Source: Candidatus Trichofilum aggregatum
GTDB taxonomy: Bacteria; Chloroflexota; Anaerolineae; Promineifilales; Promineifilaceae
Length of the DNA: 64,000 bases
NCBI GenBank assembly: GCA_016716885.1
Contig: JADJUV010000025.1
Coordinates: forward strand, 2,688-66,687
Direction of reading: 5' to 3'
The notes under the pieces were generated by a model. It did not search any database. It was given only the letters and a program-made list of their open reading frames with translations, and was not told the DNA's origin. Below, piece after piece: positions 1 through 64,000 of the stretch; positions within the stretch are counted from its first letter, which is position 1, and each line of letters begins with the position of its first letter. Made by a program: the position numbers and the translations under genes.

Positions 1-240
1 CTACTTATTAGGAAGACAACAAGTGTAACAAGTAACCAGTTTGTCCAATTCATTCTCTTTTAAGGCGTTTTGGGTGACGAACAGGGTTTCGGTGGTGAGT
101 TGCAGGTCGAGGAAGATGGTAGACTGGATGGTTTCGCCGGGGGCAAATTCACCCAGCAGGGCATATTCGCGGCCGCGTTCCGGCAAAAAATAATCCGTAA
201 TCGTGCGTGTCTTGGGGTTCGCCAGCCAGTATTCCTTCAT
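1..240 (-). pseudogene. Uma2-family (DUF820) endonuclease-like C-terminal fragment
   Basis: 79-aa ORF starting 1 nt after the stop of the upstream response regulator. The KEYWLANP...TITDYF segment looks like the C-terminal third of ~190-aa Uma2 proteins, and the N-terminal part is absent. Confidence 0.4.
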
Positions 241-241
241 C

Positions 242-883
242 CTACACCAGTCCTCGCCTCACCGCTTCCGCGGCCGCTTGCGCCCGCGTCTGCACCCCCA
301 ATTCGGCAAAAATCTGGCGCACCTTCCGTTTGACCGTGGCATCACTCATAAACATCACCTGGGCGATGTCGCCGTTGCTGGCGCCCTCGGCCAGCAGGCG
401 CAGGATTTGACGCTCCTCTACATCCAGGGCGAGTGTGTCTTTGGGGCGTGTTACCGGCTGACCTAACGCCCGTTGAATGACCTGCTCCGTCACCTGGGGG
501 CTAAAGGCCCGTTCCCCCCGGTGGACGGCCTGAATCGCATTCACCAGCATCTCATCCGACACGTTTTTGAGGATAAACCCCAACGCCCCCACCCGCAGAG
601 CTTCCATGATGTACTCCTCATCATCATACGAGGTGAGCATAAGTACTTGGGCGGTGGGAACTTGTTGCCGAATCTGGCGCAGAACATCCAGCCCCGATTC
701 ACCCGGCAGGCTGATGTCCAGCAAGGTCACATCCGGCGGAGCGTCCTGGAAATAGGCCAACGCCTGTTTGCCATTCTCCGCCTCACCCACCAGTTGAAAC
801 TCCGGGTAGTTGGAGAGCAAACTACGGATGCCCTGCCGCACAATAGGATGGTCGTCTACGACTAAAACGGTGATGGAAGTCAT
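242..883 (-). CDS. NarL/FixJ-family response regulator (receiver + LuxR-type HTH)
   Basis: VLVVDDHPIVRQG receiver start, LLDISLPGESG phospho-acceptor region, and C-terminal ERQILRLLAEGASNGDIA...TVKRKV LuxR HTH. Confidence 0.95.
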   Translation of the reverse strand: MTSITVLVVDDHPIVRQGIRSLLSNYPEFQLVGEAENGKQALAYFQDAPPDVTLLDISLPGESGLDVLRQIRQQVPTAQVLMLTSYDDEEYIMEALRVGALGFILKNVSDEMLVNAIQAVHRGERAFSPQVTEQVIQRALGQPVTRPKDTLALDVEERQILRLLAEGASNGDIAQVMFMSDATVKRKVRQIFAELGVQTRAQAAAEAVRRGLV

Positions 884-896
884 AGGGTTATGGGGG

Positions 897-1000
897 CAAA
901 TAATTAATCGGTGAATGGTTGAATGGGTGAATTGTTAATGAAGTCCGAAATCGCCTCATTAACAATTCACCAATTCACCAAATTCAACAATTAATTATTC
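897..1000. repeat. Long imperfect hairpin built from GGTGAAT-like words, between kinase and regulator genes
   Basis: Perfect 16-bp arms GGTGAATTGTTAATGA (926-941) and TCATTAACAATTCACC (956-971). Outer arms of GGTGAAT/GGTTGAAT words pair with ATTCACC words. Confidence 0.75.
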
Positions 1001-2633: not shown

Positions 2634-2810
2634 ATGAGGTGTATAATTACCTGCACATTCCGTCCTAACCTGGATAAGCCTGAACCAAAGCGGTTTTGCC
2701 ACGAATTAACACGAGTTAGGACGAATGAGAAAAAGATAATTCGTGCCAATTCGTGAAGTTCGTGGCAGATATCCTTGTTTTCTGCACAAGAAATTGACTT
2801 GTAACCTGCT

Positions 2811-2910
2811 ACTCGACTTTGGCAAAAATGAGAACGACCTCTGGAAATCCTCTCGTTGTTTAATCTCTTCGTCTCCAGAGGTGAAATTAAAAACGCCAAA
2901 CTCCAGTAAA
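2811..2910 (+). repeat. ~100-bp nested-hairpin repeat, copy A
   Basis: ACTCGACTTTGGC...GACCTCTGGAAA...TCTCCAGAGGT...CGCCAAACTCCAGT. The same architecture occurs at 17701, 29282 (reverse) and 33229. Confidence 0.8.
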
Positions 2911-2931: not shown

Positions 2932-4513
2932 ATGATTACTTTAATACGGTGGGTTACGTTTTATGCGGAATCGTTGACCGGGGGATTATTCCTCTGGTTG
3001 GGTCTTTATATTCTTTCGCGAGGTTTTCCGCTGGCTCGTGGGGCTGAAAAACGTTGGTGGTGGCGGCACGGGACTTTTGCGGCGGGATTAAGTTTTGTCC
3101 TGGCAGCCTGGTTTATTTTTGGGATTGCCCTGCGTTCGATTGTGGTTGATCAGGATGAGTATGTCTTGTGGTTACGCTTAACCTGGTGGCCGGTGCCTCT
3201 GGCTTTGGTGTTGTGGTTGCGAGCCGTATGGCTTATTCCGGCGAAGGGTAAACCGGCGGAATTGTCTGATGGGGAGCGCTGGGTGTTGTGGGGCGGGCTG
3301 ACCGCGGCCGCGCTGCTGGCCCTTTCTCAGTTTCACCGCCAACACGGTTTTCCGTTATCAAGATGTTGTCGCTACCGCGGCCGCGTGGACTGATTATTAT
3401 CACATCCCCCCTAACACACCTCCCTATTACCTGTTTATTGCCTTCCTGCTCCTGATTCTCTTCAGCACCGCCCTCTCCCTATATCAGCGTTACCGTTCCA
3501 GCCCTCCGGGTTCCCCGGCCCAACGCGAATTTCGATTGCTGACATGGGGCACGCTACTTTTCATTGTTGGCGCAACCATTGGTGTAGCTGATTCCCTGTT
3601 GGGGCAAAACGCCTGGCAAGAACATGTGGGGTACGCCATTGCGGCCGCGGGCATTCTGTTCCTGGGGCGTGGTGTCTTGCGCTACAATGCCCTCATTGAT
3701 CAGAAGATCATTCAACAGGATTTTGGACGCTCTTTACGGGGGGCGTTGGCGAGTTCCCTACTCTTTCTCCTCATATTCAACGTCGCTTTTGCGGTTACGG
3801 ACAATCCGCTTCCCCCATTGGTTGTGCCGCTCTTAATCTATGTGCCCATTTTTATTACCACTCCCTTACGATGGTTCATCAGCCTGATGGATCAATGGTT
3901 GTTACCTGCCTGGCAAGCCCAGTTCATGTGGCGGCTGACCGAAGTGCGTCAACAGGTGCTCACATCGCCTAATAAGCAAGAAGCTTTGCAACTGGCCATG
4001 GAACAGTTACGCCAGAGCACGCAGGAAGCGCAATTGGGCCAGATTCAGGAAATGATTGGGGCTGAGGTAGCAGCTATTTTCCGCCACAGCGGTTTTAAGC
4101 AGGAATCTGTGCTAACCAAGAGCCAATTGTTTGAGTTAAGTCAGGTTGAACAAGCCCTGAACGCATATTGTCAGGAGCATAACCTGGTGATGGGCTTGCT
4201 GACTAATCGGGAGAAGTCTCGTTTTTTGCAAGGGTTCTTGTCCCATTTCATGCACCAGCATCTTAGGCCATCCGCCCGCCATGCCGACCGTCACCCGATT
4301 GATGACCACGAAATTGAATATTTGCTCCTCTACAAAAGCTACGTTGAAGGCAAGATACGAATGGAAGTCATTCACGAAATAGAGGCTGAGACGGGTTTTC
4401 GCCTGGCGGGGAGTGGAACTGGCGGCCGCGTTTATGCTCAATTTTTGCAGAATGGTCGGCAACGCCTGGCCGAACTTCTATGGCATGAGGAACTCCGTTT
4501 TTACAACAGTTAA
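2932..4513 (+). CDS. Polytopic membrane protein of unknown function, apparently one gene split by a frameshift near 3331-3333
   Basis: ATG at 2932 follows the repeat. The hydrophobic ORF ends at 3393, but the frame of ORF 3536..4513 is open back to about 3302 and reads on as TANTVFRYQDVVATAAAWTDYYHIPPNTPPYYLFIAF. No recognisable family. Confidence 0.5.
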
Positions 4514-4686
4514 CCTCAATTTACCCCCCTTCCACCATCCATCATCTAAAGAGAAACTCCCTTTATCACCTATTGACCCCCTGTAGACAACATTGGGACA
4601 ACATTTGTGGTTGTATTGGACAGCTTTTCGCTCTATGAAAGGGAGTGTTCCTGTTGCGACCTTGCCTGATGATAAGGAGAAATGAA

Positions 4687-5355
4687 ATGCGTCTATTGAG
4701 GTATTGGTACATTTTGTTGGTTGTGGCTGTGGTTATACCCTGTTTAGTCTGGGCGTTTGTCTGGTTTTTGCGCTATTTTCTTGGCCCCGATCTGTGGTTT
4801 GCGTTTGGCTATCTTTACTTCCTGTTGAGCTTGGGAATGAGTTCCAGTTTGTTGTCTTATGGGGCTAAAGCGCTTGTCTATGGGGGAATTGGCCTGGGTT
4901 TGTGGCTTTGGTTGCGGCAAGATGGTCGGTTCGCGGCCGCGCAGGAGCAAGCGCAGATGCAACCCTTGCGGATTTTGGTCTTGGGCCAGGGTGATACCAG
5001 TCTGGAACACCAGTTAATCAAGAAAATGGAGCAAGCTCTACCCGAATGTCATCTAACCTATTTTGACCTGACCGCGGCCGCGGTTGAAGGTTCTCTCCCT
5101 GTCAGCCAACAGTTTGTCGGCATAGACCTGATCATCGGTCGCTGGCCGTTGACCTTGGCCGGGAAAGAGGCTATGCCCCTTACCGACGAAGTAACAGCAC
5201 TCCTCGTCAGTAGCTCTGCACCCAGAATTATCATCCCCCATCAAGTTTCTGGTTCGGACTGGGCGGGACTGATGAATGATAGTGACAATATGGTGATTGA
5301 ATCTGTTGTAGATAAAGTGAAAAAGTTGTCGCTTCGCCAGGCTGCGTATGAATAA
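4687..5355 (+). CDS. Membrane protein, unknown function
   Basis: AAGGAGA RBS 7 nt before ATG 4687. Two to three predicted TM helices followed by a soluble domain. Start uncertain (the ORF opens at 4645). Confidence 0.6.
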   Translation: MRLLRYWYILLVVAVVIPCLVWAFVWFLRYFLGPDLWFAFGYLYFLLSLGMSSSLLSYGAKALVYGGIGLGLWLWLRQDGRFAAAQEQAQMQPLRILVLGQGDTSLEHQLIKKMEQALPECHLTYFDLTAAAVEGSLPVSQQFVGIDLIIGRWPLTLAGKEAMPLTDEVTALLVSSSAPRIIIPHQVSGSDWAGLMNDSDNMVIESVVDKVKKLSLRQAAYE

Positions 5356-5680
5356 AAAAGTGTCGAAAATGGTTTCTTCAGTAGCTGATTTGTTGGCCGT
5401 CATTAGTTGTTTGTGGGGCATGGCAGGGGTGTGTGGTCTGGCATGTGGTCTTAGCTTTGTGGGATTAGAACCCATATTCGTTATTGGTCTCTATGTAGGA
5501 TTGCCCTCTTTTGCAATTGGCATTCTGGCGCTTATTGCTGGTCTTTTGACATACCAGGCGGGAAAGCCACAAACGCAACTAAAGATGGCGATTATCGGGT
5601 TATTCTGCGGGGCATTAGAGATTGCGGCCGCATTTGCGCTCATCACCTATTTCACCTATTTATTCACTTCAATTCATTAG
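5348..5680 (+). CDS. Small membrane protein, unknown function
   Basis: 110 aa with three hydrophobic segments. Overlaps the upstream stop by 8 nt. Confidence 0.55.
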   Translation: MNKKVSKMVSSVADLLAVISCLWGMAGVCGLACGLSFVGLEPIFVIGLYVGLPSFAIGILALIAGLLTYQAGKPQTQLKMAIIGLFCGALEIAAAFALITYFTYLFTSIH

Positions 5681-5770
5681 TCATCGTTCGTTTTTAACTT
5701 AGCGATTTTTAGATTGCGGCAGTCTTCAAGACTGCCGCAATCTAGCGAACTTATTCACGAACGACTACTT
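5678..5770. repeat. Long hairpin with a perfect 16-bp inner palindrome
   Basis: AGATTGCGGCAGTCTT (5711-5726) C AAGACTGCCGCAATCT (5728-5743). Outer arms AGTCATCGTTCG / CGAACGACTACT pair imperfectly. Lies directly after the stop at 5680. Confidence 0.8.
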
Positions 5771-5841
5771 AGTTGTTGGGTTATCCATCAGGCCATTTGT
5801 TGTTGTGGCTTTGGATGTCTCATTCGTGAGGTACGGATATT

Positions 5842-6889: not shown

Positions 6890-6969
6890 CTCAGACAAGC
6901 TGGAGAGCTAGAAGGAGAATGCATGGCTTTACGCCTATCTCTTGCTCCAACCTCTCGCTCTAGCTCCCC

Positions 6970-7638: not shown

Positions 7639-7654
7639 TGATTGTCCTCACTCG

Positions 7655-7682
7655 TGGTGCATGGTGTATGGTGCGTGGTGCA
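7655..7682. repeat. Heptamer array (TGGTGYR)x4 between kinase and regulator genes
   Basis: TGGTGCA TGGTGTA TGGTGCG TGGTGCA, followed at 7699-7717 by GGTTACTGGTTACTGTTCAC, the complement of the GTGAACAG word family. Confidence 0.8.
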
Positions 7683-15406: not shown

Positions 15407-16534
15407 ATGCACAGGATGATTACGTTGTTGACGCCGCGCTGTGTTTTGTTGCAGGTGGGCCGGGTTTGGTGGCAGTTTGAACAGCCGGAAATGGTGTTCG
15501 CGGCCGCAACCCCCACCGATATTCTCCCCGCTCTCCACACGATTGAACAGGCTGTCAACACCCAGGGCCTCTACGCCGTTGGTTTCCTCACCTACGAAGC
15601 CGCGGCCGCGTTCCACCTCACCACCCACTCCCCATCACCTGATAACCTGCCCCTGCTCTGGTTTGGCCTTTTCCGCGAGCCAAAGATTTTGCCGCAGTTG
15701 CCGTCTCCGGCCTCGTCATTTACCCCCACGACCTGGCAACCGTCGCTGGACGCGGCCGCGTACACCACCGCCATCCAGGCCATCAAAGATGAAATCGCCC
15801 AGGGTAACACCTACCAGGTCAACTTCACCTTCCCCTTGCACGCACCTTTTGACGGCGATGCTTACGCCCTGTTTCATCACCTGGCCCTGGCGCAACGAGC
15901 CAGCTACACCGCTTATTTTGACCTGGGTACTCATGCGATTTGCTCGGCGTCGCCGGAGCTGTTTTTTGGCCTGGATGGGGAGCGGCTGTGGTCCAAACCG
16001 ATGAAGGGCACGATGGCACGCGGCCGCGACCCCACCACCGACGAACAAAACCGCCTGGCTCTCTACCATTCCGACAAGAACCGGGCCGAAAATGTGATGA
16101 TTGTAGACATGATCCGCAACGACATGGGGCGCATCTGCCGCCCCGGGTCGGTGCAGGTTCCCCACCTGTTTGCGACGGAACCGTACCCCACGCTGTGGCA
16201 AATGACCTCAACCGTTACCGGCATGACCTCGGCCCCGTTCAGCGACATCATGGCGGCGATGTTTCCCTGCGCCTCGATTACGGGTGCGCCCAAAGTGCGG
16301 ACGATGGAGATTATCAGGGGGTTGGAGCCGCGGCCGCGTTCCCTTTACACTGGCTCTATCGGCTACCTGGCTCCGGGGCGACAGGCCCAGTTCAACGTCG
16401 CCATCCGCACCGCCCTGGTTGACCGGACTGCGGGGCAGGCCAGTTATCATGTCGGCAGTGGCATTGTGTGGGATTCGGATGCGGCCGCGGAGTGGGATGA
16501 GTGTTTGTTGAAGGCGCGGATTTTGGAAGGATGA
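15407..16534 (+). CDS. pabB: Aminodeoxychorismate synthase component I (chorismate-binding enzyme family)
   Basis: Chorismate-binding signatures: NTYQVNFTFP, SPELFF, PMKGT, ENVMIVDMIRND, ITGAPK, SLYTGSIGY. ATG 15407 chosen over the ORF opening at 15341. Confidence 0.8.
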   Translation: MHRMITLLTPRCVLLQVGRVWWQFEQPEMVFAAATPTDILPALHTIEQAVNTQGLYAVGFLTYEAAAAFHLTTHSPSPDNLPLLWFGLFREPKILPQLPSPASSFTPTTWQPSLDAAAYTTAIQAIKDEIAQGNTYQVNFTFPLHAPFDGDAYALFHHLALAQRASYTAYFDLGTHAICSASPELFFGLDGERLWSKPMKGTMARGRDPTTDEQNRLALYHSDKNRAENVMIVDMIRNDMGRICRPGSVQVPHLFATEPYPTLWQMTSTVTGMTSAPFSDIMAAMFPCASITGAPKVRTMEIIRGLEPRPRSLYTGSIGYLAPGRQAQFNVAIRTALVDRTAGQASYHVGSGIVWDSDAAAEWDECLLKARILEG

Positions 16535-19102: not shown

Positions 19103-20881
19103 ATGAGTCGTTTCAACCGTTTGACCCCCGTTCCTTCTGATCTGGACATCGCCCAGGCGGCTACCCCTTTATCCATCATCGAAATCGCCGCCCAAATCGG
19201 CCTCAGCCCCGACGATTTGATCATGTACGGCAAAACGAAGGCCAAAGTCCATCTGGATGTGCTCAAAAGATTGCCCGAAAAACCCATTGCCAAATATGTG
19301 GACGTGACCGCCATCACCCCCACGCCCCTGGGCGAAGGTAAAACCACCACCAGCGTCGGTCTGACACAGGGGTTGGGCGCATTGGGCTACAAAGCCATCG
19401 CCTGCATCCGCCAACCCAGCATGGGGCCGACGTTCGGCATCAAGGGTGGGGCGGCTGGTGGTGGTTACAGCCAGATCATCCCCATGGAAGATTTCAACCT
19501 GCACCTGACGGGGGATATTCATGCCATCACGGCGGCACATAATCTGGTCGCGGCCGCGATTGATGCCCGCATTTTCCACGAAGACCGCATGACCGATGAG
19601 CAACTGGCGAAAATCGGCCTCACCCGGCTAGACATTGACCCCTACGCCCTCACCTGGAACCGGGTCATGGATGTGAACGACCGCAGTCTGCGTAACGTCA
19701 TCGTCGGCCTCGGCCCCAACGAAGACGGGCGGCCGCGCCAGACCGGCTTCGATATCACCGTCGCCAGCGAAATCATGGCGATTTTGGCCCTGGTCAATGG
19801 CACGGATTACCGTTCCGCTTTGAAAGATTTGCGCCAGCGTTGCGGCCGCATCGTCATCGGCAACAGCAAGAGCAAAAAACCGATCACCCTGGAAGAGTTG
19901 GGTGTGGCCGGAGCCGTGACCGTACTCATGAAAGATGCCCTGCACCCCAACCTCATGCAAACCCTCGAAGGGCAACCGGCCTTCGTCCATGCTGGCCCCT
20001 TCGCCAACATCGCCCACGGCAACTCATCCATCCTGGCCGACCAGATCGCCATGCGCCTGGGCGATTTCGTCATCACCGAATCCGGCTTCGGCGCGGACAT
20101 TGGCATGGAGAAATTCTTCGACATCAAATGCCGCTACTCCGGCCTCATTCCCAACTGCGTGGTGCTGGTGGCGACCATCCGCGCCCTGAAGATGCACGGC
20201 GGCGGCCCCAAAGTGGTGCCCGGAAAACCGCTCGCGGCCGCGTACATCGAAGAAAATATTGACCTGCTCAACGCGGGCATGGCTAATCTGGCGGCCCACA
20301 TTCGCAACGCCAAACGGTTTGGCATCCCCGTTGTCGTCGCCATCAACAAATTCCACACCGACACCCCCGCCGAAGTTGAAGCGGTGCGTCAGGGAGCTAT
20401 CGCCGCTGGGGCAGAAACGGCGGTGATGAGTGATCATTGGGCCTTGGGTGGTGATGGGGCGATGGAACTGGCGGAAGCGGTCGCGGCCGCGTGCCAACAA
20501 CCGTCCAACTTCAGCTTCCTCTACCCGCTGGAGCAATCCATCAAGGCCAAGATTGAGACGATTGCCAAGGAGATGTACGGCGCGGCCGCGGTCACTTACG
20601 AACCCCTGGCCGAGCAACAGATCAAATCCTACGAAGCCAACGGCTTCGGCAACCTGCCCATCTGCATGGCCAAAACGCATCTCAGCTTAAGCCACGACCC
20701 CAACCTGAAAAACGCGCCCACCGGTTTCACCGTCCCCGTGCGCGAAGTACGGGCCTCTGTCGGTGCTGGGTTCATCTATCCCTTGCTAGGCACCATGCGC
20801 ACCATGCCTGGCCTGGGCAGCAAACCCGCCTACATGAACGTAGACATAGACGAAGACGGTCGCGTCCTCGGCCTGTTCTAA
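19103..20881 (+). CDS. fhs: Formate--tetrahydrofolate ligase
   Basis: [13 protein letters not shown]-loop region, [15 protein letters not shown] and ICMAKT motifs. Full length is intact. Confidence 0.95.
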
Positions 20882-20935: not shown

Positions 20936-21258
20936 AATTCTCTTCCTTAAACGTCGATTAGATTTGCCTCACTCAGTCCACTTCATTCCCCTCTCGTTTT
21001 TACCTTTTCCTCTCTGGCCAAAGGCCTTTGTATAACCTATCTATACCCCTCACTTGTATCAAGGTACATGAGAAATCGCGGCCGCTACCCTACAGTAAGG
21101 CTAACGTCTGGTCTTGCCCGATGTTTAACCAGGCGATAACCATACAGGCAGTGGGCATAAACAAAGGTTTTCGCCCCGTCACCCCCTCGCTTTGTCGCCG
21201 CGTCGGGCATATATCCCTGTTGGGGAGCCAACCTTGTTTCAGGGAAAAGGAGTATCAC

Positions 21259-23100
21259 ATGAATAAACATCCACTAAATCGCCTGATGCCAGGGCAACGC
21301 CTTATCGCGCTGCTGTGGGGACTGCTGGTAGTTATGATGATAACAGGGTGTGGCACTGGCGCGGCCGCGGACCCCACCCCCACGCCTGATCAAGAGGCTC
21401 AAATCTCCGCCGCCGCCCAAACCTACCTCACCTTAAGCCAGGATGCCCTGGCCCAACAATTAGGTATTCCTCCCCCAGAGATTGAACTGGAAAGTATGAT
21501 TGAACCGTTTGAAGTCGGTGGAACCTTCATCATCAGACTGAACGCCCAGGGCCAAACCTATGAATACCACGGTATGAATAACGAAGTCCTGCTTGTTTCA
21601 GACCCCTTACCAACGGCCGCCGCCACGGTAGAAATAGCGGCCACAACTGATACCACGCTCACCCCTTCCATCCCCACCGGAACCTACACCTCGACCCACA
21701 CTTTCGAGCTAGCGCTGGTAGATGATCTACAAATCATGTTTGATGACGGGGCGCCTGCCCCTGTGAGTGTGTTCATCAGTGGGCAACTACGGGGTGGCTG
21801 CGAAGAAATTTATGAAAGTAGTGCCATCATGGTAAACGACACAACCTTTGTGGTTGATGTGATGACCCGTCGTCCGAATGATGTAGCCTGTACTCTGGCA
21901 CTCGTTCCTTACACCCACACCGTATCGCTGGGCACCGAAGCCGCAGATTTACCCCCTGGCGAGTACACTGTGGTCGTAAACGATGAACACACCACCACTT
22001 TTGCCTGGCCAAACGGCAGTGGCATCAACACACCCTTGCCGCCCACGGTAAGCTTCACCCTGACGGAGACGGTTGCTATCTCTAGCACCACCCAGATCAT
22101 CACGGCCACTGAGGTGACTGAAGACAGGCCGTACTGGGAACTTTTCCCCCTGCATACGGAAATCACATTAGCCGGATATGTCCAGCCAGATTCTTTGCTG
22201 GTCCCGCGCCTTTTGGTTTATCCGGCCAGTGAGTTTGCGCGGCTGAGCGACGCGGCCGCGGCCCAAATTGACGCCCTCAGTGAACTCTTGGCCACAGAGC
22301 CACTACTGGTTGAAGCGCAAACATTGCCATTTCTGCCGCTTTTTAATGCTGCACCCATGTTCCATGCCCAGGGGCAGTATTTGGACTTCGCCAACGGTAG
22401 CGGCATTCGCTACTTGACTCAATACGAACAGGCAACCGTCCCTGTGAACAATCAGGAGCTGTTCTACACGTATCAAGGTTTAACCGATGACGGCGCGTAC
22501 TACGTAGCGGCGGTCTTCCCGGTTTCCCACCCTGATCTGCCCGCCGATATCTCCTCTGTACCAGAGGACATGGCGGATGACTTTGAAACTTATATGAACA
22601 GCGTCATAGAGCAGATGAATGGGGCGGACGCGGCCGCGTTCACGCCGGATTTAGCCACACTTGATGCGTTGGTTCGCTCAATAATGGTTACAGGCCAAGG
22701 TGAACCCGTTGATGAGGGCATTGCCGTCTACACTGGGGCCGATCTGGTACGTGAGCTGGAAAGTGCCGGAGCCACCGTGGCTCTTAGTACCGAACCCATC
22801 TCGGGAGCAGATATCTTTACCGTGTCTGGATACATCCTTTTTGTCAACGGCGAGGAGATTACGCTTTATCAATATGAAAGTGGGGACGCGGCCGCGAGTG
22901 ATGCGGCCCGCATCTCGGCTGATGGATTCATCATTGAGCCGCCTGAAGGCAGTGAAAGCGGAGAGATTGTTGTAGATTGGCTCAATCCCCCCCACTTTTA
23001 CCAGCGCAACAACCTGATCATCCTCTACGTAGGCACGGATGAAAGCATAATAACATTGCTGGAATCTGTGCTCGGCTCACCCTTTGCTGGTGGTCAATAA
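21259..23100 (+). CDS. Large lipoprotein, unknown function
   Basis: AAAAGGAG RBS. MNKHPLNRLMPGQRLIALLWGLLVVMMITGC lipobox followed by a PT-rich linker. No recognisable catalytic motifs. Confidence 0.7.
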   Translation: MNKHPLNRLMPGQRLIALLWGLLVVMMITGCGTGAAADPTPTPDQEAQISAAAQTYLTLSQDALAQQLGIPPPEIELESMIEPFEVGGTFIIRLNAQGQTYEYHGMNNEVLLVSDPLPTAAATVEIAATTDTTLTPSIPTGTYTSTHTFELALVDDLQIMFDDGAPAPVSVFISGQLRGGCEEIYESSAIMVNDTTFVVDVMTRRPNDVACTLALVPYTHTVSLGTEAADLPPGEYTVVVNDEHTTTFAWPNGSGINTPLPPTVSFTLTETVAISSTTQIITATEVTEDRPYWELFPLHTEITLAGYVQPDSLLVPRLLVYPASEFARLSDAAAAQIDALSELLATEPLLVEAQTLPFLPLFNAAPMFHAQGQYLDFANGSGIRYLTQYEQATVPVNNQELFYTYQGLTDDGAYYVAAVFPVSHPDLPADISSVPEDMADDFETYMNSVIEQMNGADAAAFTPDLATLDALVRSIMVTGQGEPVDEGIAVYTGADLVRELESAGATVALSTEPISGADIFTVSGYILFVNGEEITLYQYESGDAAASDAARISADGFIIEPPEGSESGEIVVDWLNPPHFYQRNNLIILYVGTDESIITLLESVLGSPFAGGQ

Positions 23101-30314: not shown

Positions 30315-33026
30315 TTACCCCTTCAATTCCAACCAGTTGTTACCGGTACTGGCCTCAACTTTGAGCGGAACATCTAATTTGAATGCCCCTGACATGACTT
30401 CTACCACCAGGGATTGAACCGCGTCACTCTCTTCTTGAGGAACTTCCAGTACCAATTCATCATGTACCTGCAATATCATACGGGCACGGAAGCCATCTGA
30501 CAATCTCTTGTGTAGCATTATCATCGCAATCTTCACAATGTCAGCGGCTGTGCCTTGAATGGGGTGATTGACGGCTTCTCGTTCGGCTCGCATGAGTGCC
30601 TGAACGTTGCGTTGCCCAGCCTGGGACTTGAATATGTCAAAATAACGTCGCCGTCCTAATAGGGTTTCGACAAACCCATCCTGGCGGGCCTTTTCTTTGG
30701 TGCCTTCCAGGTAACGTTGGATGCCAGGGAAGCGGGCGAAATATTCTTTGATGTAATTTTCGGCTTCGGCCAGAGTAAATTCGGAATCGCGGGAGAGGCG
30801 GTAAGCCCCCATGCCATAGATGAGGCCGAAGTTGACGGATTTGGCGAAACGCCGTTGTTGAAAGGTTACTTGTTCTACGGGCAGGCGAAACACCGCGGCC
30901 GCGGTGGCCCGGTGAATGTCTTGATCTTCCCAGAAGGCCTGAAGCAACGCCTCATCCTGGGTGATATGGGCCAAAATGCGTAACTCAATCTGGGAATAGT
31001 CAGCGGCAATAAAGACCCAACCCGGCTCTGGCACAAAAGCCCGCCGAATTTTCTGACCCAACTCGGTGCGGATGGGGATATTTTGCAGGTTGGGGGAGTT
31101 GCTGGCAATGCGCCCGGTTACGGAGCCAGTCTGGTTGTAGCTGGTATGGACACGCCCGGTGGTACTGTTGACCATTGTGGGGAGGGCATCCACGTAGGTG
31201 CTTTTCAGTTTGCCCAACTCCCGGTATTCCATCAGGCAGGCGATGATGCCGGTATCGTCACCCGGTTCCAGGCTTTCTAGTACGTTGACAGCCGTGGAAA
31301 AATAGCCCGTCTTGTTCTTTTTCAACCCTTCACGGGGCAGGTTGAGCTTTTTGAAGAGAATGTCGCTCAATTGCTGGGGTGAATTAATGTTGAACGGTTC
31401 ACCCGCCAGGCGATGGATATCGGCTTCTAGTTCGGCGAGCCGTTTGTCTAGCTCTTTGGCCATCTGGGTCAGGAAGGTTACGTCGAGGCGCACGCCAGCC
31501 TGTTCCATGTCTGAGAGGATGGGCATGAGAGGCATTTCGATGTCGAGTATTTTGTCTAACTTGAGGCTAATAATCTCCTGGCGCAGAGGTTCTAACAGGC
31601 GCAAGGTCATGACGGCATCACTGGAACCGTACGCGGCCGCGTCCTCAATCGGCACTTCGGCAAAATTGCGCTGCGCCTTGCCAGTCCCAATCAGCTTCTC
31701 GATGGGGGTCATTTCGACCCCCAACCGATGTCGGGCCAAATCTTTCAGCCCCTTGTGCTTGGTATCGGGGTCAATCAGCCATTCACCGATCATGGTGTCA
31801 AAGGTGATGGGTGTGGCCCGTACTCCCGCTCTATCCAGAATGGTGTAATCATATTTAGCATTGTGAGCAATTTTGGCGATGTTGGGGTTGGTCATGGCCG
31901 GACGGATGGCGTCCAGTACGGTTTGTAAGGCCAGTTGCCCCTCGGCCAACTTACGGTCGCCAGCGAAGAGGTTCATCTGGCCGCTGGTGGTTTGCGGTTC
32001 ATTTTGCAGATGCCCCACGGGGACGTAATAACCCACAGTTGGTTCAACGGCCAGACAGATACCCACAATTTCGGCGTTCATCTTTTCCAGGCTGGTGGTT
32101 TCCAGGTCGAAGCTGATAAGTTTGGCCCGGTTGAGATCGTTGACCAGGGCCTGGAGTTGGGCCGGTGTCTGTACGGTGATGGTTTGGTAGGCGGCACTGA
32201 GGGCTTCTTCTTCCGGGGTGGGGGTGGTCGCGGCCGCGTCTGTCATCTCGGCCAGCAACCGACTCAAGGTGCGGAACTCTAGCTCGCGGAACAGGTCCAA
32301 CACCGGGGCAGGGTCAAAATCATGGGTCAGGCAAGCCTCTAGTTCAAGCGTAATGGGGGCATCGCGCACAATCAAGGCCAATTTATAACTCAAATAGGCC
32401 ATCTCCCGATTCGCTTCCAGCTTTTCGCGCTCCCCTTTTTTCAATTCTAGGGCTTTGAAATCTACGATCTGGAGGGGTTGAAACTGGTATTTTTCTACGA
32501 CTGCGGCCGCGTCAAATTTTTGTGGCTCCCGTTGGAACTTGCCCGCAGGTGGTAACTCAACCAGCGTGTTCTCATCTACCAGTTGGAGCAGGTCACGATC
32601 CCCGGTGATGATATGGGTCGGTACCGCCAAATCTTTCGCCTGCCGGGCCACCGTCCCCAATAAATCATCCGCTTCAAACCCTTCCATCTCCCAAATCGGG
32701 ATATTCATCGTCCGCACTACCTGTTTGATGCGTTCAATTTGCAGACTCAGTTCATCCGGCATTTTAGCCCGCGTACCCTTATATTCTTCGTATAGGGCAT
32801 CACGGAATGTTCCACCCAGGTCAAAAGTAACCGCCAGATAGCGCGGCGGCTGGGGCGACAGAATTTGCTCTAACAAAGTACGCGTAAAACCAAACGTCGC
32901 GTTGGTGGGTTCGCCCTCTTTGGTCGTAAATTGTTCAACCGGTAAGGCGTAGAACATGCGATAGGCCAGGGCATGGCCGTCAATGAGGAGTAGCTTGTGA
33001 ATGGATTGGGGTATAAGTTTAGTCAT
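30315..33026 (-). CDS. polA: DNA polymerase I
   Basis: 903 aa with a 5'-nuclease N-terminus (LLIDGHALAYRMFYA), a 3'-5' exonuclease (SFDLETTSL) and pol motifs (DYSQIELR, RRFAKSVNFGLIYG, QVHDELV). Confidence 0.97.
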   Translation of the reverse strand: MTKLIPQSIHKLLLIDGHALAYRMFYALPVEQFTTKEGEPTNATFGFTRTLLEQILSPQPPRYLAVTFDLGGTFRDALYEEYKGTRAKMPDELSLQIERIKQVVRTMNIPIWEMEGFEADDLLGTVARQAKDLAVPTHIITGDRDLLQLVDENTLVELPPAGKFQREPQKFDAAAVVEKYQFQPLQIVDFKALELKKGEREKLEANREMAYLSYKLALIVRDAPITLELEACLTHDFDPAPVLDLFRELEFRTLSRLLAEMTDAAATTPTPEEEALSAAYQTITVQTPAQLQALVNDLNRAKLISFDLETTSLEKMNAEIVGICLAVEPTVGYYVPVGHLQNEPQTTSGQMNLFAGDRKLAEGQLALQTVLDAIRPAMTNPNIAKIAHNAKYDYTILDRAGVRATPITFDTMIGEWLIDPDTKHKGLKDLARHRLGVEMTPIEKLIGTGKAQRNFAEVPIEDAAAYGSSDAVMTLRLLEPLRQEIISLKLDKILDIEMPLMPILSDMEQAGVRLDVTFLTQMAKELDKRLAELEADIHRLAGEPFNINSPQQLSDILFKKLNLPREGLKKNKTGYFSTAVNVLESLEPGDDTGIIACLMEYRELGKLKSTYVDALPTMVNSTTGRVHTSYNQTGSVTGRIASNSPNLQNIPIRTELGQKIRRAFVPEPGWVFIAADYSQIELRILAHITQDEALLQAFWEDQDIHRATAAAVFRLPVEQVTFQQRRFAKSVNFGLIYGMGAYRLSRDSEFTLAEAENYIKEYFARFPGIQRYLEGTKEKARQDGFVETLLGRRRYFDIFKSQAGQRNVQALMRAEREAVNHPIQGTAADIVKIAMIMLHKRLSDGFRARMILQVHDELVLEVPQEESDAVQSLVVEVMSGAFKLDVPLKVEASTGNNWLELKG

Positions 33027-50707: not shown

Positions 50708-50775
50708 GCGGCCGCGTTCCCCCTCTCATCCTGCCAAAATCAGCGCCTTCAACAAACATTCCTGCCACGCCGTGG
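50708..50775 (-). pseudogene. Remnant of a pabB-like 3' end
   Basis: The minus strand reads ...WQECLLKALILAG-stop versus pabB ...WDECLLKARILEG-stop. The nucleotide match to the reverse complement of 16490-16546 runs about 55 nt. Confidence 0.6.
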
Positions 50776-57309: not shown

Positions 57310-57372
57310 TGCGTGATGCGTTCAGCAGGCCTCGCGGCCGCAACCAACAATGAGCGATCTCACAATAGACCA

Positions 57373-57440
57373 TCAAACAAGCGATTCGAGTCTTGCGGCC
57401 GCGTCCAGCATGACGCCGGGAACCAGCCCTATCTTGTACA
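57373..57440 (-). pseudogene. Duplicated 3'-end remnant of the amidase gene
   Basis: Reads ...GLVPGVMLDAAARLESLV-stop versus the amidase ...GLVPGLMLACRPGSEGVLLDAAARLESLI-stop. Nucleotide identity is high apart from a 33-nt gap. Confidence 0.8.
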
Positions 57441-61980: not shown

Positions 61981-63024
61981 CTAAGAACGTAGCCCAGTGA
62001 CAAACGCGGCCGCAACCTCACCTAACGCTTTACCCTCTGAATACCCCCCTTCCTGAATCGCTAACACTGGCAGGCCCACCCCGGCGATGAGTTGGCCCAT
62101 CTGTTGAAAATTATCCGGGGTGAGTTGAAACTTGCCGAGGGCATCGGTCGCGGCCGCGTCCAAACCAAACGACACCACGATGCACCAGCAATCCTGCTTC
62201 ACCACCTGATCCAGCGCCTCTTGCAACGATGGCCGATAAACCGACCAATCGGTCGTGTGGAGGGGCAGAGGGTAGTTGCGATTAAAACCCAGCCCCGCGG
62301 CCGCGCCGGTCTCTTCGGCGTAGCCGGAGAAATAGGGATACTCTTCATCAGGGTCGGCGTGGATGGAGAGGAATAAAACTTCGTCGCTGTGGTAGAAGAT
62401 TTCCTGCGTGCCATTGCCATGGTGATAATCCACGTCCAGAATGGCGACGCGGCCGCGTTGGGACAATTTTTTCCCCGCCAGCGCGGCATTATTGAAGTAG
62501 CAGTAGCCGCCGTAGCGGCCGCGCATAGCATGATGACCGGGCGGACGGCACAGGGCATAAGCCCGCTCATTTTCCCCCGTTAAAAAAGTCTCCGCCATAT
62601 CCAGGGCTAACGCGGCCGCTTGCCGGGCAATGCGGTTGGTGTGCGGACCGATGGGTGTGGCCGTGTCCAGGCAATAATGCCCTGCGTGTACCGGCAACCA
62701 GCGTGGCAGGCGGGTCGTAGCCGCCACCGGCGTAAACGCCTCCGGTAACAGCTCCTGGCCGGGATAATCCTTCTCCCACTGACCATACGCCTCAGCCAGA
62801 AAATGGATCAGCTCCGCACTGTGTACGGTGAGCAGTTCGGCATCGGTAGCCTGGCGGGTGTGGGCGATGGGCCTGATGTGGGGTAAGGCCTGGATGGCGG
62901 CCAGGGTTGCGGCCGCGCGATAAGGCTGCTCCGGGTTGCGTTCACATTGGCCAAAACTCACTTGCATTTGTGGATCATGCCACCGGTGTTCGGGCATGTA
63001 GGCGAGAGGGAAAAGGTTGGTCAT
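61981..63024 (-). CDS. Histone-deacetylase-family enzyme (acetylpolyamine/acetoin-utilisation type)
   Basis: RPPGHHA, YCYFNNAA, DVDYHHGNGTQ and EGGY motifs. Start MTNLFPLAY at 63024. Confidence 0.88.
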   Translation of the reverse strand: MTNLFPLAYMPEHRWHDPQMQVSFGQCERNPEQPYRAAATLAAIQALPHIRPIAHTRQATDAELLTVHSAELIHFLAEAYGQWEKDYPGQELLPEAFTPVAATTRLPRWLPVHAGHYCLDTATPIGPHTNRIARQAAALALDMAETFLTGENERAYALCRPPGHHAMRGRYGGYCYFNNAALAGKKLSQRGRVAILDVDYHHGNGTQEIFYHSDEVLFLSIHADPDEEYPYFSGYAEETGAAAGLGFNRNYPLPLHTTDWSVYRPSLQEALDQVVKQDCWCIVVSFGLDAAATDALGKFQLTPDNFQQMGQLIAGVGLPVLAIQEGGYSEGKALGEVAAAFVTGLRS

Positions 63025-63138
63025 AGGATTGGATTCGGGTAAATTAAAGGCCCTGGACAAGACAATTTGAGGGTTGCGGCCGCGCCACGTCAACTTTAGC
63101 ACAAAAAGCCAGCATCGAACCAGGAATTACCCACCTGA

Positions 63139-63341
63139 CGGCAATTCTCCATTTAAGACCATTCGTAGGGGCGGGACAGGTGGGCCAGGATCGGGTCAAG
63201 CAGGGAACCTATTTTCCCACCTGTCTCGCCCTTTTTCAGTAAGAGGGCGAGACGACACGGAAAGATCGTTTCCAGTTCATCCTCATTGAACCCGCGTCGT
63301 CCCGCCCCTACTATCATGGTCTGTCAAATTGAGAATTGTTG
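63139..63341. mobile_element. MITE-like element, copy 2
   Basis: CGGCAATTCTCCATTTAAGACCATTCGTAGGGGCGGGACAGG...CCCACCTGTCTCGCCCT...AGGGCGAGACGAC...GTCGTCCCGCCCCTAC...GTCAAATTGAGAATTGTTG aligns along its length with 2401-2633. Confidence 0.7.
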
Positions 63342-63371
63342 TCGCATAACATTTACGCTTACAAGGAGTCC

Positions 63372-64000
63372 TATGAACACGCAAGCTCTATTCAGTTACT
63401 TAAATGCTTATCTTCGCGTTGATGAGATAAAGGATTATGGGCCACAGGGGTTGCAGGTGGAAGCCGAGAAGAGCGACATCCACAAAATAGCCCTGGGGGT
63501 GGATGTGTCACCGGCGATTATCCAGAGCGCGGCCGCGTGGGGGGCCGATATGCTGTTGGTGCATCATGGGATTCTGTGGCGCAACGTCGAGTGCTTGAGC
63601 GGAGCCTTAGGCCAGCGCGTGCGTTTGTTACTCAAACACGACATCCATTTGTACGCCGCCCATCTTCCCCTCGATGCCCACCCCGAAGTGGGCAACAACG
63701 CCGTGCTGGCCCAGATGCTAGGCGTCGCCGTCGCCAACTGGTGGTGCTCCCCCACCAACGCACCCCTGGGCGTTTTTGGTCTTTTGTCTCAGCCCGTGCC
63801 CGTCACCGACCTCGTCACCCTGCTCAACGAGCAGTTGCCTACCCAGGCACGTCTTTTGGCCCACGGCCCCGCCCAGGCCGAGCGCGTCGCCATCCTGTCC
63901 GGTTTTGGGGCCGATCAGGTAGCCGACGTGAGGAAATTGGGCGCGGACACCTACGTCACCGGTGAAACATCCCATGCCCACTACTGGGCAGCCTCTGATT
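63372..64000 (+). CDS. Nif3-like dinuclear-metal-centre protein (YbgI family), 3' partial
   Basis: Own translation from ATG 63372 gives MNTQALFSYLNAYLRVDEIKDYGPQGLQVE...ADMLLVHHGILW...YAAHLPLDAHPEVGNN...YVTGETSHA. Open to the window end and absent from the ORF track. Confidence 0.8.

Follow-up and report, generated by a model that had tools for sequence, protein, structure and literature searches.

The octameric palindrome GCGGCCGC, which pervades the 64-kb stretch of DNA analyzed here (referred to in the following as the window), is very probably an element of the highly iterated palindrome (HIP) class that acts at the DNA level and spreads by substitution. The CGGCCG-based system of the Chloroflexota, of which it is one dialect, is an independent counterpart of the cyanobacterial HIP1. 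Knowledge of HIP1 dates back three decades, and its function is still debated, with roles in methylation-directed repair, in chromosome structure and as a DNA-uptake signal under discussion. In the literature that we searched, highly iterated palindromes are described from cyanobacteria only, and no description of a CGGCCG-type HIP of Chloroflexota was found.

An initial annotation of the window had counted about 130 copies of GCGGCCGC by eye, against about three expected. Exact search yields 133 copies, all coordinates quoted at that time being correct, and this corresponds to ~2 copies per kb or ~2,080 per Mb (Table 1). Shuffled sequences of preserved dinucleotide content contain 2.18 copies on average and never more than 6, so that the observed number is a 61-fold excess; the per-strand Markov expectations of orders 0, 1, 2 and 3 are 1.8, 2.2, 3.7 and 7.9, equivalent to excesses of 72-, 60-, 36- and 17-fold, whereas models from order 5 upwards already incorporate the motif and therefore carry no information. 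Among all octamers of the window, GCGGCCGC ranks first, followed by its own one-base shifts (102 and 96 copies), and the next independent palindrome reaches 14 copies. Of the 133 copies, 101 are preceded by C (position -1) and 95 are followed by G (position +8). The palindromic 10-base form CGCGGCCGCG accounts for 72 of them; the statement that most copies are extended in this way thus holds for just over half. The conserved unit comprises GCGGCCGC and about 2-3 bases on each side, nucleotide identity to relatives is raised only within ~6 nt of the sites, and a comparison of repeats and flanks in the window revealed no longer shared unit.

About 90% of the copies are genic, with representatives in 39 of the 44 curated genes of the window, and about 12 copies (~9%) are intergenic; the respective densities are ~2.2 per kb in coding and ~1.5 per kb in intergenic DNA. 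The copies at 40962 and 41214 are intergenic by one gene calling, while the curated calls place them within a cytochrome ORF (40575-41756). As the initial annotation had read them, coding copies specify Ala-Ala-Ala (AAA; 78-82 sites, about two thirds) or, in the other frames, the Arg-containing peptides x-Gly-Arg (22-23) and Arg-Pro (16), counts that vary with the gene calls used. Conversely, 83 of the 99 AAA tripeptides in the window (84%) are spelled GCG-GCC-GCN, and the motif spelling also underlies 23 of the 29 [SGRC]GR and 16 of the 25 xRP[LPHQR] peptides; GCGGCCGC sites fill almost every peptide context that is able to encode them. The third Ala codon at AAA sites is GCG in 66, GCA in 14, GCT in two and GCC in no case, against an overall preference for GCC among the Ala codons. 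At these frame-0 sites, position -1 is occupied by C (68), T (9) or A (5), and neither G at -1 nor C at +8 was ever found. Since the motif spelling is preferred, the third Ala codon runs against the preference for GCC, and all three frames, genes of both strands and intergenic DNA are occupied, the force behind GCGGCCGC acts at the level of DNA and not at that of protein or codons.

How individual copies come into being can be followed in fhs (19103-20881) and polA (30315-33026), for which the six and four copies listed by the initial annotation, together with the quoted peptides, were all recovered. The fhs comparison set 108 relatives with less than 88% identity against 12 close relatives with at least 88% identity. 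Alignments of both genes with their orthologues show that lineage-specific amino-acid replacements created three fhs sites out of six and a single site in polA. At 20234, the distant relatives mostly possess L-D-K-A-Y-T, while 11 of the 12 close relatives read L-A-A-A-Y and one reads LAVAYT. V-V-A-A-C-E in 71 of the 108 relatives corresponds at 20483 to V-A-A-A-C in the GCGGCCGC clade, and S-A-G-E-V or N-A-A-E-V of the relatives corresponds at 20582 to G-A-A-A-V in the close clade. The proline replaced at polA 31633 is kept in ~50 relatives, including distant Anaerolineae; nearly all relatives read E-D-A-A-P-Y-G, and GCG GCC GCN is present at this alignment column only in the window and in the relatives L001 and L002. 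Next to the polA site at 32503, relatives with the A..T dialect (see below) read D-E-T-A-V, spelled ACG GCC GTN; the site of L001 and L002 is two codons off the position at 32230, and the conserved T-A-A-A-V at 30895 is encoded in relatives as GCGGCCGT or with a different choice of Ala codons. Wherever a site was gained or lost, the alignment with the orthologues is gap-free, without a single indel. These alignments show that GCGGCCGC copies arise singly through point substitutions in existing sequence, and that the DNA motif is strong enough to force amino-acid replacements, as had been proposed when a DNA-level drive overriding protein sequence was first suspected.

Shared GCGGCCGC sites make up 67-100%, as compared with 12-33% for generic octamers, at nucleotide identities of 71-86%; the fractions of window sites conserved are 18/20, against 30% of ordinary octamers, in L068, 5/6 in L069, 6/7 in L073, 6/6 in L074, 4/6 in L001 and 6/8 in L002. 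Once made, the sites seem to stay in place even among relatives that differ strongly at other silent positions, but part of this conservation could represent convergent re-creation on conserved AAA peptides. Independent assemblies of relatives contain 0.9-2.2 copies per kb, also in genes absent from the window. The same motif positions recur in assemblies that were built independently from separate runs (SRR8569141, SRR17055913 with three others of its series, and SRR33233609) and in the GenBank MAGs JAGNBF01 and JAHDWJ01, and hence the motif is confined neither to the window nor to this assembly.

Table 1. Coordinates of the GCGGCCGC copies and associated features in the window
Feature	Position	Strand	Basis or remark
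GCGGCCGC, all 133 copies	starts 169, 270, 1078, 1238, 1425, 3304, 3377, 3641, 4422, 4933, 5074, 5624, 6035, 6121, 6749, 7445, 7866, 8052, 10250, 10862, 11673, 12531, 12712, 12983, 13879, 14079, 14216, 14855, 15059, 15242, 15386, 15500, 15602, 15752, 16020, 16330, 16481, 16717, 17259, 17826, 19550, 19729, 19842, 20234, 20483, 20582, 21078, 21361, 22252, 22630, 22888, 23732, 25060, 25304, 25568, 26199, 26293, 27278, 27467, 27734, 27974, 28612, 28738, 28902, 29648, 29926, 30895, 31633, 32230, 32503, 33075, 34232, 34366, 34953, 35451, 36203, 36713, 37382, 37697, 38065, 38570, 40962, 41214, 43472, 44739, 44762, 45142, 45348, 45602, 45826, 46365, 46723, 47280, 47934, 49045, 49439, 49520, 50054, 50708, 51399, 52261, 53301, 53592, 53621, 53745, 54321, 55151, 55353, 55460, 55614, 56082, 56602, 56671, 57065, 57334, 57395, 58215, 58395, 58854, 59796, 59937, 60483, 60662, 61089, 62006, 62150, 62297, 62449, 62515, 62612, 62909, 63076, 63529	none (palindrome)	exact search of 1..64000
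Two intergenic sites, 57334 and 57395, 61 bp apart	57334..57402	none	gene calls
Further intergenic copies	169, 33075, 36203, 45602, 46723, 51399		gene calls
Site at edge of 59-nt inverted repeat	16481..16488	none	partner site 50708
Intergenic site at edge of 59-nt inverted repeat	50708..50715	none	partner site 16481
fhs site V-A-A-A-I-D	19550..19557	+	synonymous recruitment on pre-existing conserved peptide; VAAAID in 69/108 distant relatives
fhs site D-G-R-P-R-Q, frame 2	19729..19736	+	conserved peptide; alignment
fhs site R-C-G-R-I-V, frame 1	19842..19849	+	alignment
fhs site L-A-A-A-Y-I	20234..20241	+	created by two amino-acid replacements
fhs site V-A-A-A-C-Q	20483..20490	+	created by Val->Ala
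fhs site G-A-A-A-V-T	20582..20589	+	created by Gly->Ala and Glu->Ala
Lineage-specific 2.24-kb insertion, 690-aa ORF	21028..23100	+	comparison of relatives
polA site on conserved T-A-A-A-V	30895..30902	-	alignment column 899
polA site E-D-A-A-A-Y-G	31633..31640	-	created by Pro->Ala; alignment column 645
polA site T-D-A-A-A-T-T, variable linker	32230..32237	-	alignment column 409
polA site D-A-A-A-V	32503..32510	-	alignment column 279

The nearest polA and fhs sequences belong to Chloroflexota MAGs labelled Ardenticatenaceae or Promineifilaceae, and the host is an Ardenticatenia/Promineifilaceae-type Chloroflexota bacterium; the earlier view of a gene content that is not cyanobacterial agrees with this assignment. 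Across this clade, the CGGCCG core is enriched 5.6-20.7-fold, and no such enrichment is present in outgroup Anaerolineae. The hexamer is invariant clade-wide, and the pair of bases next to it on either side varies by lineage, giving rise to branch-specific flank dialects (absent, W..W, A..T, T..A, C..G, G..C); most lineages use A..T, the window G..C. One subclade (L011/L018/L022/L025/L026/L054) has lost the enrichment, and L029 has swapped the core and uses TGCCGGCA instead. GCGGCCGC is one dialect of a clade-wide system, as seen with relatives sampled over 2-23 kb each, pooled loci that share orthologous genes, and a single-protein neighbor-joining tree that lacks support values. The dialects differ in the mark that they leave on the proteome: the observed/expected ratio of AAA is 5.3 in G..C-dialect genomes versus 1.45-1.5 in relatives, and that of Thr-Ala-Val (TAV), spelled ACGGCCGT in 282 of 299 cases, is 6.7 in A..T-dialect genomes versus 0.8-1.0 elsewhere.

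The lineage-specific 2.24-kb insertion, which is missing between fhs and the gene for an RRM protein in L068, L069 and L073-76, encodes a 690-aa ORF without a family match and harbors five GCGGCCGC sites, four of them read as AAA, a density that is already normal. IMG/VR contigs bear the A..T dialect at 3-4 copies per kb, and contigs classed as viral or ICE-like have a motif density that is equal or higher.

GCGGCCGC matches the HIP class in being the top octamer, in an observed/expected ratio in the tens, and in its dispersed, substitution-spread and position-conserved occurrence; the likeness to HIP1 with a different core, noted from the outset, is therefore real. HIP1 (GCGATCGC) is likewise a perfect octameric palindrome, the commonest octamer of its own genome, dispersed over coding and non-coding DNA by substitution without indels, frequently extended to 10 bases and conserved in position between relatives (PMC5861425). 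Its quoted density of 300-2,700 per Mb (PMC4390886) brackets that of GCGGCCGC, both octamers contain nested 4-mer and 6-mer palindromes, and six of their eight bases are identical (GCG-xx-CGC). They differ in the center, which is AT with nested GATC/CGATCG in HIP1 and GC with nested GGCC/CGGCCG here, and in the main coding reading, Ala-Ile-Ala in the cyanobacterial hosts and Ala-Ala-Ala in the Chloroflexota. HIP1 proper can be rejected, since GCGATCGC has 0 copies in the window and the host is of another phylum. Further traits ascribed to the HIP class are a core targeted by co-occurring (orphan) DNA methyltransferases and a large-scale periodicity of 10-90 kb along the chromosome, for which 64 kb of sequence is too short. 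Cyanobacteria also possess alternative HIPs (TCGATCGA, GGGATCCC, CAGGCCTG, GGCGCC and others; Elhai 2015, PMC4390886), in which, by lineage, the core is kept with changed outer bases, the palindrome is replaced, or it is lost, as in the clade studied here. By comparison, the Chloroflexota series of octamers or decamers is more graded, running from the bare hexamer via W..W to A..T, T..A, C..G and G..C within one order-level clade, and it is set apart by the tripeptide signatures of its dialects.

Studies on HIP1 indicate that its sites are under selective maintenance (PMC5861425), that HIP variants follow methyltransferase repertoires (PMC4390886), and that natural transformation is 7- to over 100-fold higher with methylated HIP1 sites (bioRxiv 10.1101/2024.09.10.611283); a role as an uptake signal has been proposed (bioRxiv 10.64898/2026.06.24.733823). 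We slightly favor, as the best overall explanation, a HIP-class motif that evolved in the Chloroflexota and is maintained by a drive of the following kind. A dimeric, sequence-specific protein would read the symmetric site through a fixed 3-bp inner and a drifting 2-bp outer half-site, and fixation would be biased towards the site. By analogy with HIP1, an orphan DNA methyltransferase may mark the nested GGCC/CGGCCG core, and marked sites would be at an advantage when DNA passed between members of the lineage is taken up, homologously recombined or repaired. The outcome would be a molecular drive like that of DNA uptake sequences, with the flank dialect setting the partners for DNA exchange. 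The coupling of recombination or uptake to methylation is advanced as a tentative proposal, somewhat short of an even chance. Motif screens and Pfam/NCBIfam searches found no DNA methyltransferase, Vsr or restriction genes in the window or in the motif-dense fetched loci; as the DNA screened represents only a small part of any single genome, methylation is tied to GCGGCCGC purely by analogy.

The DUS dialects of Neisseria and the USS of Pasteurellaceae resemble GCGGCCGC in a density of ~1-2 per kb, a mostly genic location with preferred frames, lineage dialects around a conserved core, and upkeep by drive and not by transposition. Unlike GCGGCCGC, a perfect palindrome that is rarely intergenic, DUS and USS lack symmetry, measure 9-12 bases and frequently form inverted pairs in terminators; a cognate competence machinery and receptor with biased uptake is a further trait of these sequences.

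The best surviving rival, which we regard as unlikely, is a repair-driven mutational bias without DNA exchange, in which a CGGCCG/GGCC cytosine methyltransferase together with very-short-patch or mismatch repair would turn near-sites into sites. Repair of this kind is performed by Dcm/Vsr at CCWGG in E. coli, and a methylated palindrome could conceivably gain copies by such biased correction; however, Vsr-type bias leads to modest enrichment, which that of GCGGCCGC, at 17-72-fold, exceeds by one to two orders of magnitude. One-off variants of GCGGCCGC that keep the center (positions 1-2) are depleted about 2-fold (23 observed versus 50 expected) and those that break it are not (50 versus 44), as repair bias would have it, but the transition (deamination) derivatives GTGGCCGC (6 observed/9.2 expected), GCGGCTGC (8/7.6) and GCGGTCGC (5/4.1) show no specific depletion, all of these counts being small. 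The saturation of synonymous opportunities fits this explanation, as does the host dialect on viral and mobile contigs, which is expected if all DNA replicating in the cell meets the same repair; the nesting GGCC < CGGCCG < GCGGCCGC moreover parallels GATC < CGATCG < GCGATCGC (PMC4390886). Yet intergenic DNA, free of protein constraint, is no richer in sites than coding DNA, and the negative screen for Vsr and methyltransferase genes in the window and fetched loci also tells against it.

Still less probable is direct selection for dense binding sites of a dimeric protein that is nucleoid-associated or acts in segregation or replication; every site would bring a benefit of its own, without methylation or gene flow. 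A symmetric site of ~10-12 bp with drifting outer bases is what a dimeric DNA-binding protein would be expected to leave, positions are kept far above background, the distribution over genes and over the window is even (3-13 copies per 4-kb bin, none empty), and a role in chromosome structure has been proposed for HIP1 (PMC5861425). Sites also seem to repel each other at short range, with 11 closer than 100 bp versus 24 expected, in the window only, a deficit that would also suit a function requiring one site per fragment; this regularity fails to recur in relatives, as it is absent from A..T-dialect loci, bare-core loci and mobile-element contigs. Loss of the motif in one subclade and the swapped core of L029 are hard to square with an essential structural role, and the equal or higher motif density on viral and ICE-like contigs also speaks against this reading.

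Selection for Ala runs or a codon pair at the protein or translation level could draw on the predominance of AAA readings and the 5-fold over-representation of this tripeptide, but it is contradicted by sites in the other frames, on genes of either strand and between genes, by flanks that are symmetric at the DNA level against codon preference, and by relatives of identical Ala content with normal AAA and enriched TAV, and its probability is negligible. Equally negligible is an artefact or mobile repeat, be it contamination with NotI linkers or adapters (GCGGCCGC being the NotI cloning site), a join in the assembly, or an element of the REP/MITE type: a 59-nt inverted repeat (arms at 16485-16543 and 50717-50775, 86% complementary) does start at two GCGGCCGC sites, in keeping with the repeat-edge copies reported earlier, but the gap-free, in-frame sites in conserved genes, their recurrence in independent assemblies and the lack of a longer shared unit contradict this reading. 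REP/REPIN and MITE sequences are also short, palindromic and highly repeated; they are imperfect palindromes of at least 20-40 bp, intergenic only and spread by transposases. GCGGCCGC is an 8-10-bp perfect palindrome, mostly coding and made by substitution, and is neither confined to intergenic DNA nor part of a longer imperfect palindrome; it is not a mobile element.

Beyond the favored HIP-type drive, we consider a wider proposal possible, though improbable: an order-level clade of Chloroflexota would have evolved its CGGCCG HIP independently, with the flank dialect serving as a lineage-specific DNA-exchange tag that a dimeric protein or a methyltransferase, evolving along with it, recognizes; a dialect switch would rewrite thousands of sites and remodel the proteome (Thr-Ala-Val versus Ala-Ala-Ala), and mobile elements would copy the host dialect.

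A second, independent occurrence of HIPs in another phylum permits comparative tests that are beyond the reach of one phylum, aided by a different core, graded flank dialects, lineages with loss and one with a swapped core; methyltransferases, competence genes and DNA-binding proteins could be tracked against the motif in both phyla. The system also offers a clear measure of a DNA-level force on proteins, with one tripeptide raised 5-7-fold whose identity is set only by the motif flanks, and with residues conserved in most relatives, such as the polA proline, replaced in the creation of sites. In practical terms, NotI and EagI are no rare cutters in HIP-bearing Chloroflexota genomes, and binning, as well as the assignment of phage and plasmid contigs to hosts among the filamentous bacteria of wastewater and sediment, gains a strong marker in the dialect. 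If the wider proposal is true, dialects would mark units of gene flow, and this clade would provide a second, independent system in which the function of HIPs may be solved.

The palindromic octamer GCGGCCGC, built around a CGGCCG core, is present in 133 copies (exact count) in the 64,000 bases of the window, a DNA segment with a G+C content of 54%. Markov models of order 0, 1, 2 and 3 predict 1.8, 2.2, 3.7 and 7.9 copies per strand, respectively, which corresponds to a 17- to 72-fold excess, and dinucleotide-preserving shuffles of the window contained 2.2 copies on average and six at most. Models of order 5 or 6 match the observed count because the motif already sits in their parameters; as 7-mers already hold its signal, they are uninformative in this respect. 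GCGGCCGC is the most frequent of all octamers in the window, ranks two and three are occupied by its own one-base shifts, and any other palindromic octamer is present in at most 14 copies. The hyper-abundance claimed in the initial annotation is thus borne out, and an exact search found the motif at every position at which a copy had been placed. The extended form CGCGGCCGCG accounts for 72 of the 133 copies, and over all 133, position -1 is occupied by C in 101 and position +8 by G in 95.

Within the window, the sites are distributed over the entire stretch (3-13 per 4-kb bin, with no bin empty), and at least one is found in 39 of the 44 curated genes. By the curated gene calls, 116-121 copies lie in coding sequence and about 12 in intergenic DNA. 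The genes named at first sight indeed carry them: six copies are present in fhs and four in polA, and others were found in the neighbors of folD, in the gene for a thrC-like PLP enzyme, in pabB and, as judged by Pfam and NCBIfam, in genes for two-component kinases and multihaem cytochromes. Further site-bearing genes encode two-component regulators, KsgA and acyl-CoA dehydrogenases. The reading as Ala-Ala-Ala (GCG-GCC-GCN), which had been noticed, is the most common one (78-82 sites), and the remaining frames yield x-Gly-Arg (xGC-GGC-CGC; 22-23 sites) and Arg-Pro (xxG-CGG-CCG-Cxx; 16 sites). It should be noted that long shadow ORFs lie opposite true genes in the window, and naive longest-ORF calls misframe a few sites. 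A 690-amino-acid ORF accounts for an insertion of 2.24 kb that separates fhs from the gene for an RRM protein; it is missing from all close relatives examined, yet this gene, specific to the window lineage, already possesses five sites.

Several other elements were observed in the same DNA (see the table). A homopolymer block that can pair as long G:C hairpins could be either a structure-prone element or an artefact of assembly or basecalling. A dispersed repeat of about 95 nt (four copies; 79% mean column identity) contains an internal hairpin (GACCTCTGGAGA...TCTCCAGAGGTC), carries no GCGGCCGC and has no Rfam match at the gathering threshold; it could represent a regulatory leader or a small MITE. 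A gene for the small SRP RNA was detected, while no tRNA gene is present in the window.

Coordinates of individual features in the window and in one relative's locus
Feature	Position	Strand	Remarks
Repeat of about 95 nt, copy 1	2810-2893	+	in or beside intergenic DNA
Repeat of about 95 nt, copy 2	17697-17789	+	in or beside intergenic DNA
ORF, 690 amino acids	21028-23100		no Pfam or NCBIfam match
Repeat of about 95 nt, copy 3	29290-29382	-	in or beside intergenic DNA
Repeat of about 95 nt, copy 4	33229-33320	+	in or beside intergenic DNA
Bacterial small SRP RNA	47572-47670	+	Rfam RF00169, 70.5 bits
Homopolymer block	52889-53038		intergenic, just upstream of an M23-peptidase gene (ATG at 53056); G31, A8, 9-nt spacer, C18, GC, G41, 23-nt GC-rich spacer, C18
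Aminotransferase gene	55111-56280	-	true gene, opposite the shadow ORF
Shadow ORF	55222-56421	+	no family match
Tandem array, locus L038 (CAVVFA010000001.1)	4218-7700		about 40 copies of an 83-bp unit

Loci of relatives (2-23 kb each; polA was fetched from one genome per species) place the palindrome in an evolutionary context. The closest fhs proteins, encoded on short contigs, are 89-99% identical to that of the window, while the closest polA protein in a scan of genome collections reaches no more than 77% identity. The nearest fhs loci stem from assemblies made independently from public sequencing data (L068 from SRR8569141, L069-L072 from four SRR170559xx runs, and L073-L076 from four other runs); their DNA is 76-86% identical to the window and contains 1.4-2.2 copies of GCGGCCGC per kb, including in genes that lie outside the window. 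The phenomenon is hence not restricted to this window, and an artefact can be rejected as an explanation because the motif is dense in independently assembled relatives. Between 94 and 100% of the CGGCCG cores in these loci are embedded in GCGGCCGC (30 of 30 in L068, 17 of 18 in L069). The GenBank MAGs L001 and L002, whose PolA proteins share 77% (local) or about 80% (full-length) amino-acid identity with that of the window, carry about one site per kb.

Individual sites are kept in position to a high degree (18/20 in L068, 5/6 in L069, 6/7 in L073, 6/6 in L074, 4/6 in L001 and 6/8 in L002); the same alignments give 12-33% for generic octamers. Elevated sequence identity extends no further than about 6 nt from a site, so that neither a longer conserved unit nor a conversion tract is visible. 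Among the near-identical strains represented by L069-L072 and L073-L076, no polymorphic octamers were seen.

Alignments of orthologs revealed how sites come into existence and, in fhs and polA, bore out the suspicion that lineage-specific amino-acid replacements create some of them. For three of the six fhs sites, the underlying peptide (VAAAID, GRPR or CGR) was already in place, being conserved in 108 relatives; the other three are confined to the close clade and needed replacements (LDKAYT to LAAAY, VVAACE to VAAAC, and SAGEV to GAAAV). In PolA, about 50 relatives, distant Anaerolineae among them, keep the proline of the segment E-D-A-A-P-Y-G; the window and its two nearest relatives alone have changed it to alanine (E-D-A-A-A-Y-G, spelled GCG GCC GCN). 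At a second position, the window has D-A-A-A-V, and many relatives have D-E-T-A-V, spelled ACG GCC GTN. All gains and losses of sites between relatives align without gaps; therefore, the palindrome is not an inserted or mobile element, and a mobile repeat can be dismissed on these grounds and for want of a longer conserved unit around the sites.

The polA relatives are Chloroflexota MAGs labelled Ardenticatenaceae, Promineifilaceae or Anaerolineae (NCBI lineage Chloroflexota; Ardenticatenia; Promineifilales). In octamer counts, most of them possess a hyper-abundant ACGGCCGT instead of GCGGCCGC, at a maximum of 60 copies in 23 kb. CGGCCG is enriched 5- to 20-fold throughout the clade, and the flanking bases, which we refer to as dialects, vary. 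On a neighbor-joining polA tree without support values, a basal group (L031-L036, L033 among them, and L050) uses the bare hexamer at 3-4 copies per kb without any flank preference; W..W is preferred in L039 and L006, A..T (often AACGGCCGTT) in a large clade, T..A in L024, C..G in L009, and G..C in the clade of the window. The enrichment is absent from a high-GC subclade (L011, L018, L022, L025, L026, L054) and was not found in the more distant Anaerolineae loci fetched. In L029 (OZ244996.1; Promineifilaceae chromosome 2), the core is swapped: 44 copies of TGCCGGCA, with the core GCCGGC, are present in 22.8 kb along with not a single CGGCCG, and the iterated palindrome thus looks completely replaced. 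MAGs that exemplify the other states are JAGNBF01 and JAHDWJ01 (G..C), CAVVFA01, JACKBX01 and SLGK01 (A..T), JAHDGV01, JBLIMP01 and JAHDEN01 (bare core), and DATHSI01, JBMCFH01 and CAYLJW01 (enrichment lost).

In the window, pairs of GCGGCCGC less than 100 bp apart are scarce (11 versus 24 expected; P about 0.0005), a deficit that the spacing test did not reproduce in loci of other dialects; spacing is therefore not relied on as evidence. An excess of 36- and 47-bp spacings in A..T-dialect loci traces back to the tandem array of L038, in which each unit carries two AAACGGCCGTT sites, 36 and 47 bp apart in alternation, with the A..T-dialect palindrome at the borders of the units. A reading of this array as CRISPR was rejected, since both inter-site segments are conserved, as is proper for a tandem repeat. 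Related hexamers behave differently from CGGCCG: GGGCCC (the ApaI site) does not occur in 124 kb of G..C-dialect DNA (about 46 expected) and is reduced to 0.0-0.3-fold in the other dialect groups, the subclade that lost the enrichment and the outgroups; AGGCCT reaches only 0.2-0.7-fold in the window and the fetched loci. The avoidance of GGGCCC does not depend on the CGGCCG enrichment and hints at a widespread restriction pressure specific for this sequence.

Nearly every peptide able to host a site does so. In the proteins of the window, 83 of 99 Ala-Ala-Ala tripeptides are spelled GCGGCCGC, as are 23 of 29 [S/G/R/C]-Gly-Arg and 16 of 25 x-Arg-Pro-[LPHQR] peptides. Read in gene orientation, the third alanine codon is GCG in 66 cases, GCA in 14, GCT in two and GCC in none, although GCC is the most common alanine codon overall, and the base preceding the motif is C in 68 cases, T in nine, A in five and never G. 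At the level of DNA, the flanks are therefore symmetric, and the recognized unit comprises about 10 bases. The 99 Ala-Ala-Ala tripeptides of the window compare with 17 expected from composition. Pooled over G..C genomes, their observed/expected ratio is 5.3 (1.45-1.5 in relatives of equal alanine content), while that of Thr-Ala-Val is 6.7 in A..T genomes (282 of 299 occurrences spelled ACGGCCGT) and 0.8 in G..C genomes; the pooled loci share orthologous genes, so that these counts are not fully independent, but the contrast between the groups is very large. The tripeptide content of the proteome follows the flank dialect, and DNA, rather than proteins or codons, is the level at which the force acts; selection at the protein or codon level is contradicted by the data.

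Contigs from IMG/VR, chosen for having sites and viral by database label, include five (L099, L147, L077, L092, L079) with the A..T-dialect ACGGCCGT at 3-4 copies per kb. Among these, L099 resembles an ICE or plasmid (FtsK/SpoIIIE, ParA, transglycosylase), while L077, L092 and L147 have small, mostly unassignable genes. UViG_3300033417_000002, UViG_3300048592_001391 and UViG_3300037515_000543 belong to the IMG/VR contigs considered. In the corresponding scan for the G..C dialect, chance hits of high GC content dominate and only L201 (13 GCGGCCGC in 4.6 kb; 58% GC) looks genuine; PLSDB holds no annotated Chloroflexota plasmid. It seems that these hosts and their mobile elements have one dialect in common.

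The data show a substitution-based, site-specific fixation bias at the DNA level, with long-term retention of a symmetric site of about 10 bp. Across the clade, the inner CGG/CCG is fixed, while the outer two bases of each half-site drift, an architecture that would be expected if a dimeric sequence-specific protein reads the site. GCGGCCGC differs from HIP1, the highly iterated palindrome of cyanobacteria (GCGATCGC), solely in the central two bases, and both have a nested design (GGCC within CGGCCG within GCGGCCGC here; GATC within CGATCG within GCGATCGC in HIP1). In cyanobacteria, an orphan m5C methyltransferase modifies the core of HIP1, and the HIP variant of a lineage goes along with its methyltransferase repertoire (PMC4390886; PMC6105098). 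Selection maintains HIP1 sites (PMC5861425), and methylated sites raise natural transformation 7- to >100-fold, apparently at the stages of both uptake/processing and recombination (10.1101/2024.09.10.611283); HIP1 has therefore been proposed as an uptake signal (10.64898/2026.06.24.733823). Because of the shared design and these precedents, we tentatively favor a drive in which recombination or uptake would be coupled to methylation of the palindrome, a scenario that we regard as possible rather than probable. All six-frame ORFs from the window and from each fetched locus were screened for m5C, N4/N6 and Vsr motifs, and about 60 ORFs were compared with Pfam, NCBIfam and PHROGs; no DNA methyltransferase, restriction or Vsr gene was detected in the window or in the motif-dense fetched loci (2-23 kb per relative).

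A purely repair-based bias appears unlikely to us. The near-sites that bear on it are small in number: one-off variants that keep the center (changes at positions 1-2 or 7-8) occur 23 times versus 50 expected, those that break it 50 times versus 44, and the transition products of cytosine deamination show no specific depletion. Direct selection for a structural binding site, in keeping with the symmetry of the unit, is in our view somewhat less likely still, and the list must be kept open for something not yet conceived.

The density of GCGGCCGC, 2,080 copies per Mb in the window, falls inside the range of 300-2,700 per Mb for HIP1 in most cyanobacteria (Elhai, PMC4390886). The HIP literature searched treats the phenomenon as cyanobacterial, and the searchable literature, subscription-only papers being outside its scope, contains no mention of an over-representation of GCGGCCGC, ACGGCCGT or CGGCCG in Chloroflexota or Promineifilum. 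The palindrome and HIP1 are elements of one kind that occur in different phyla and have different cores. The flank dialects form a more graded series than the cyanobacterial HIP variants do, and an effect of the palindrome on the proteome has been measured.
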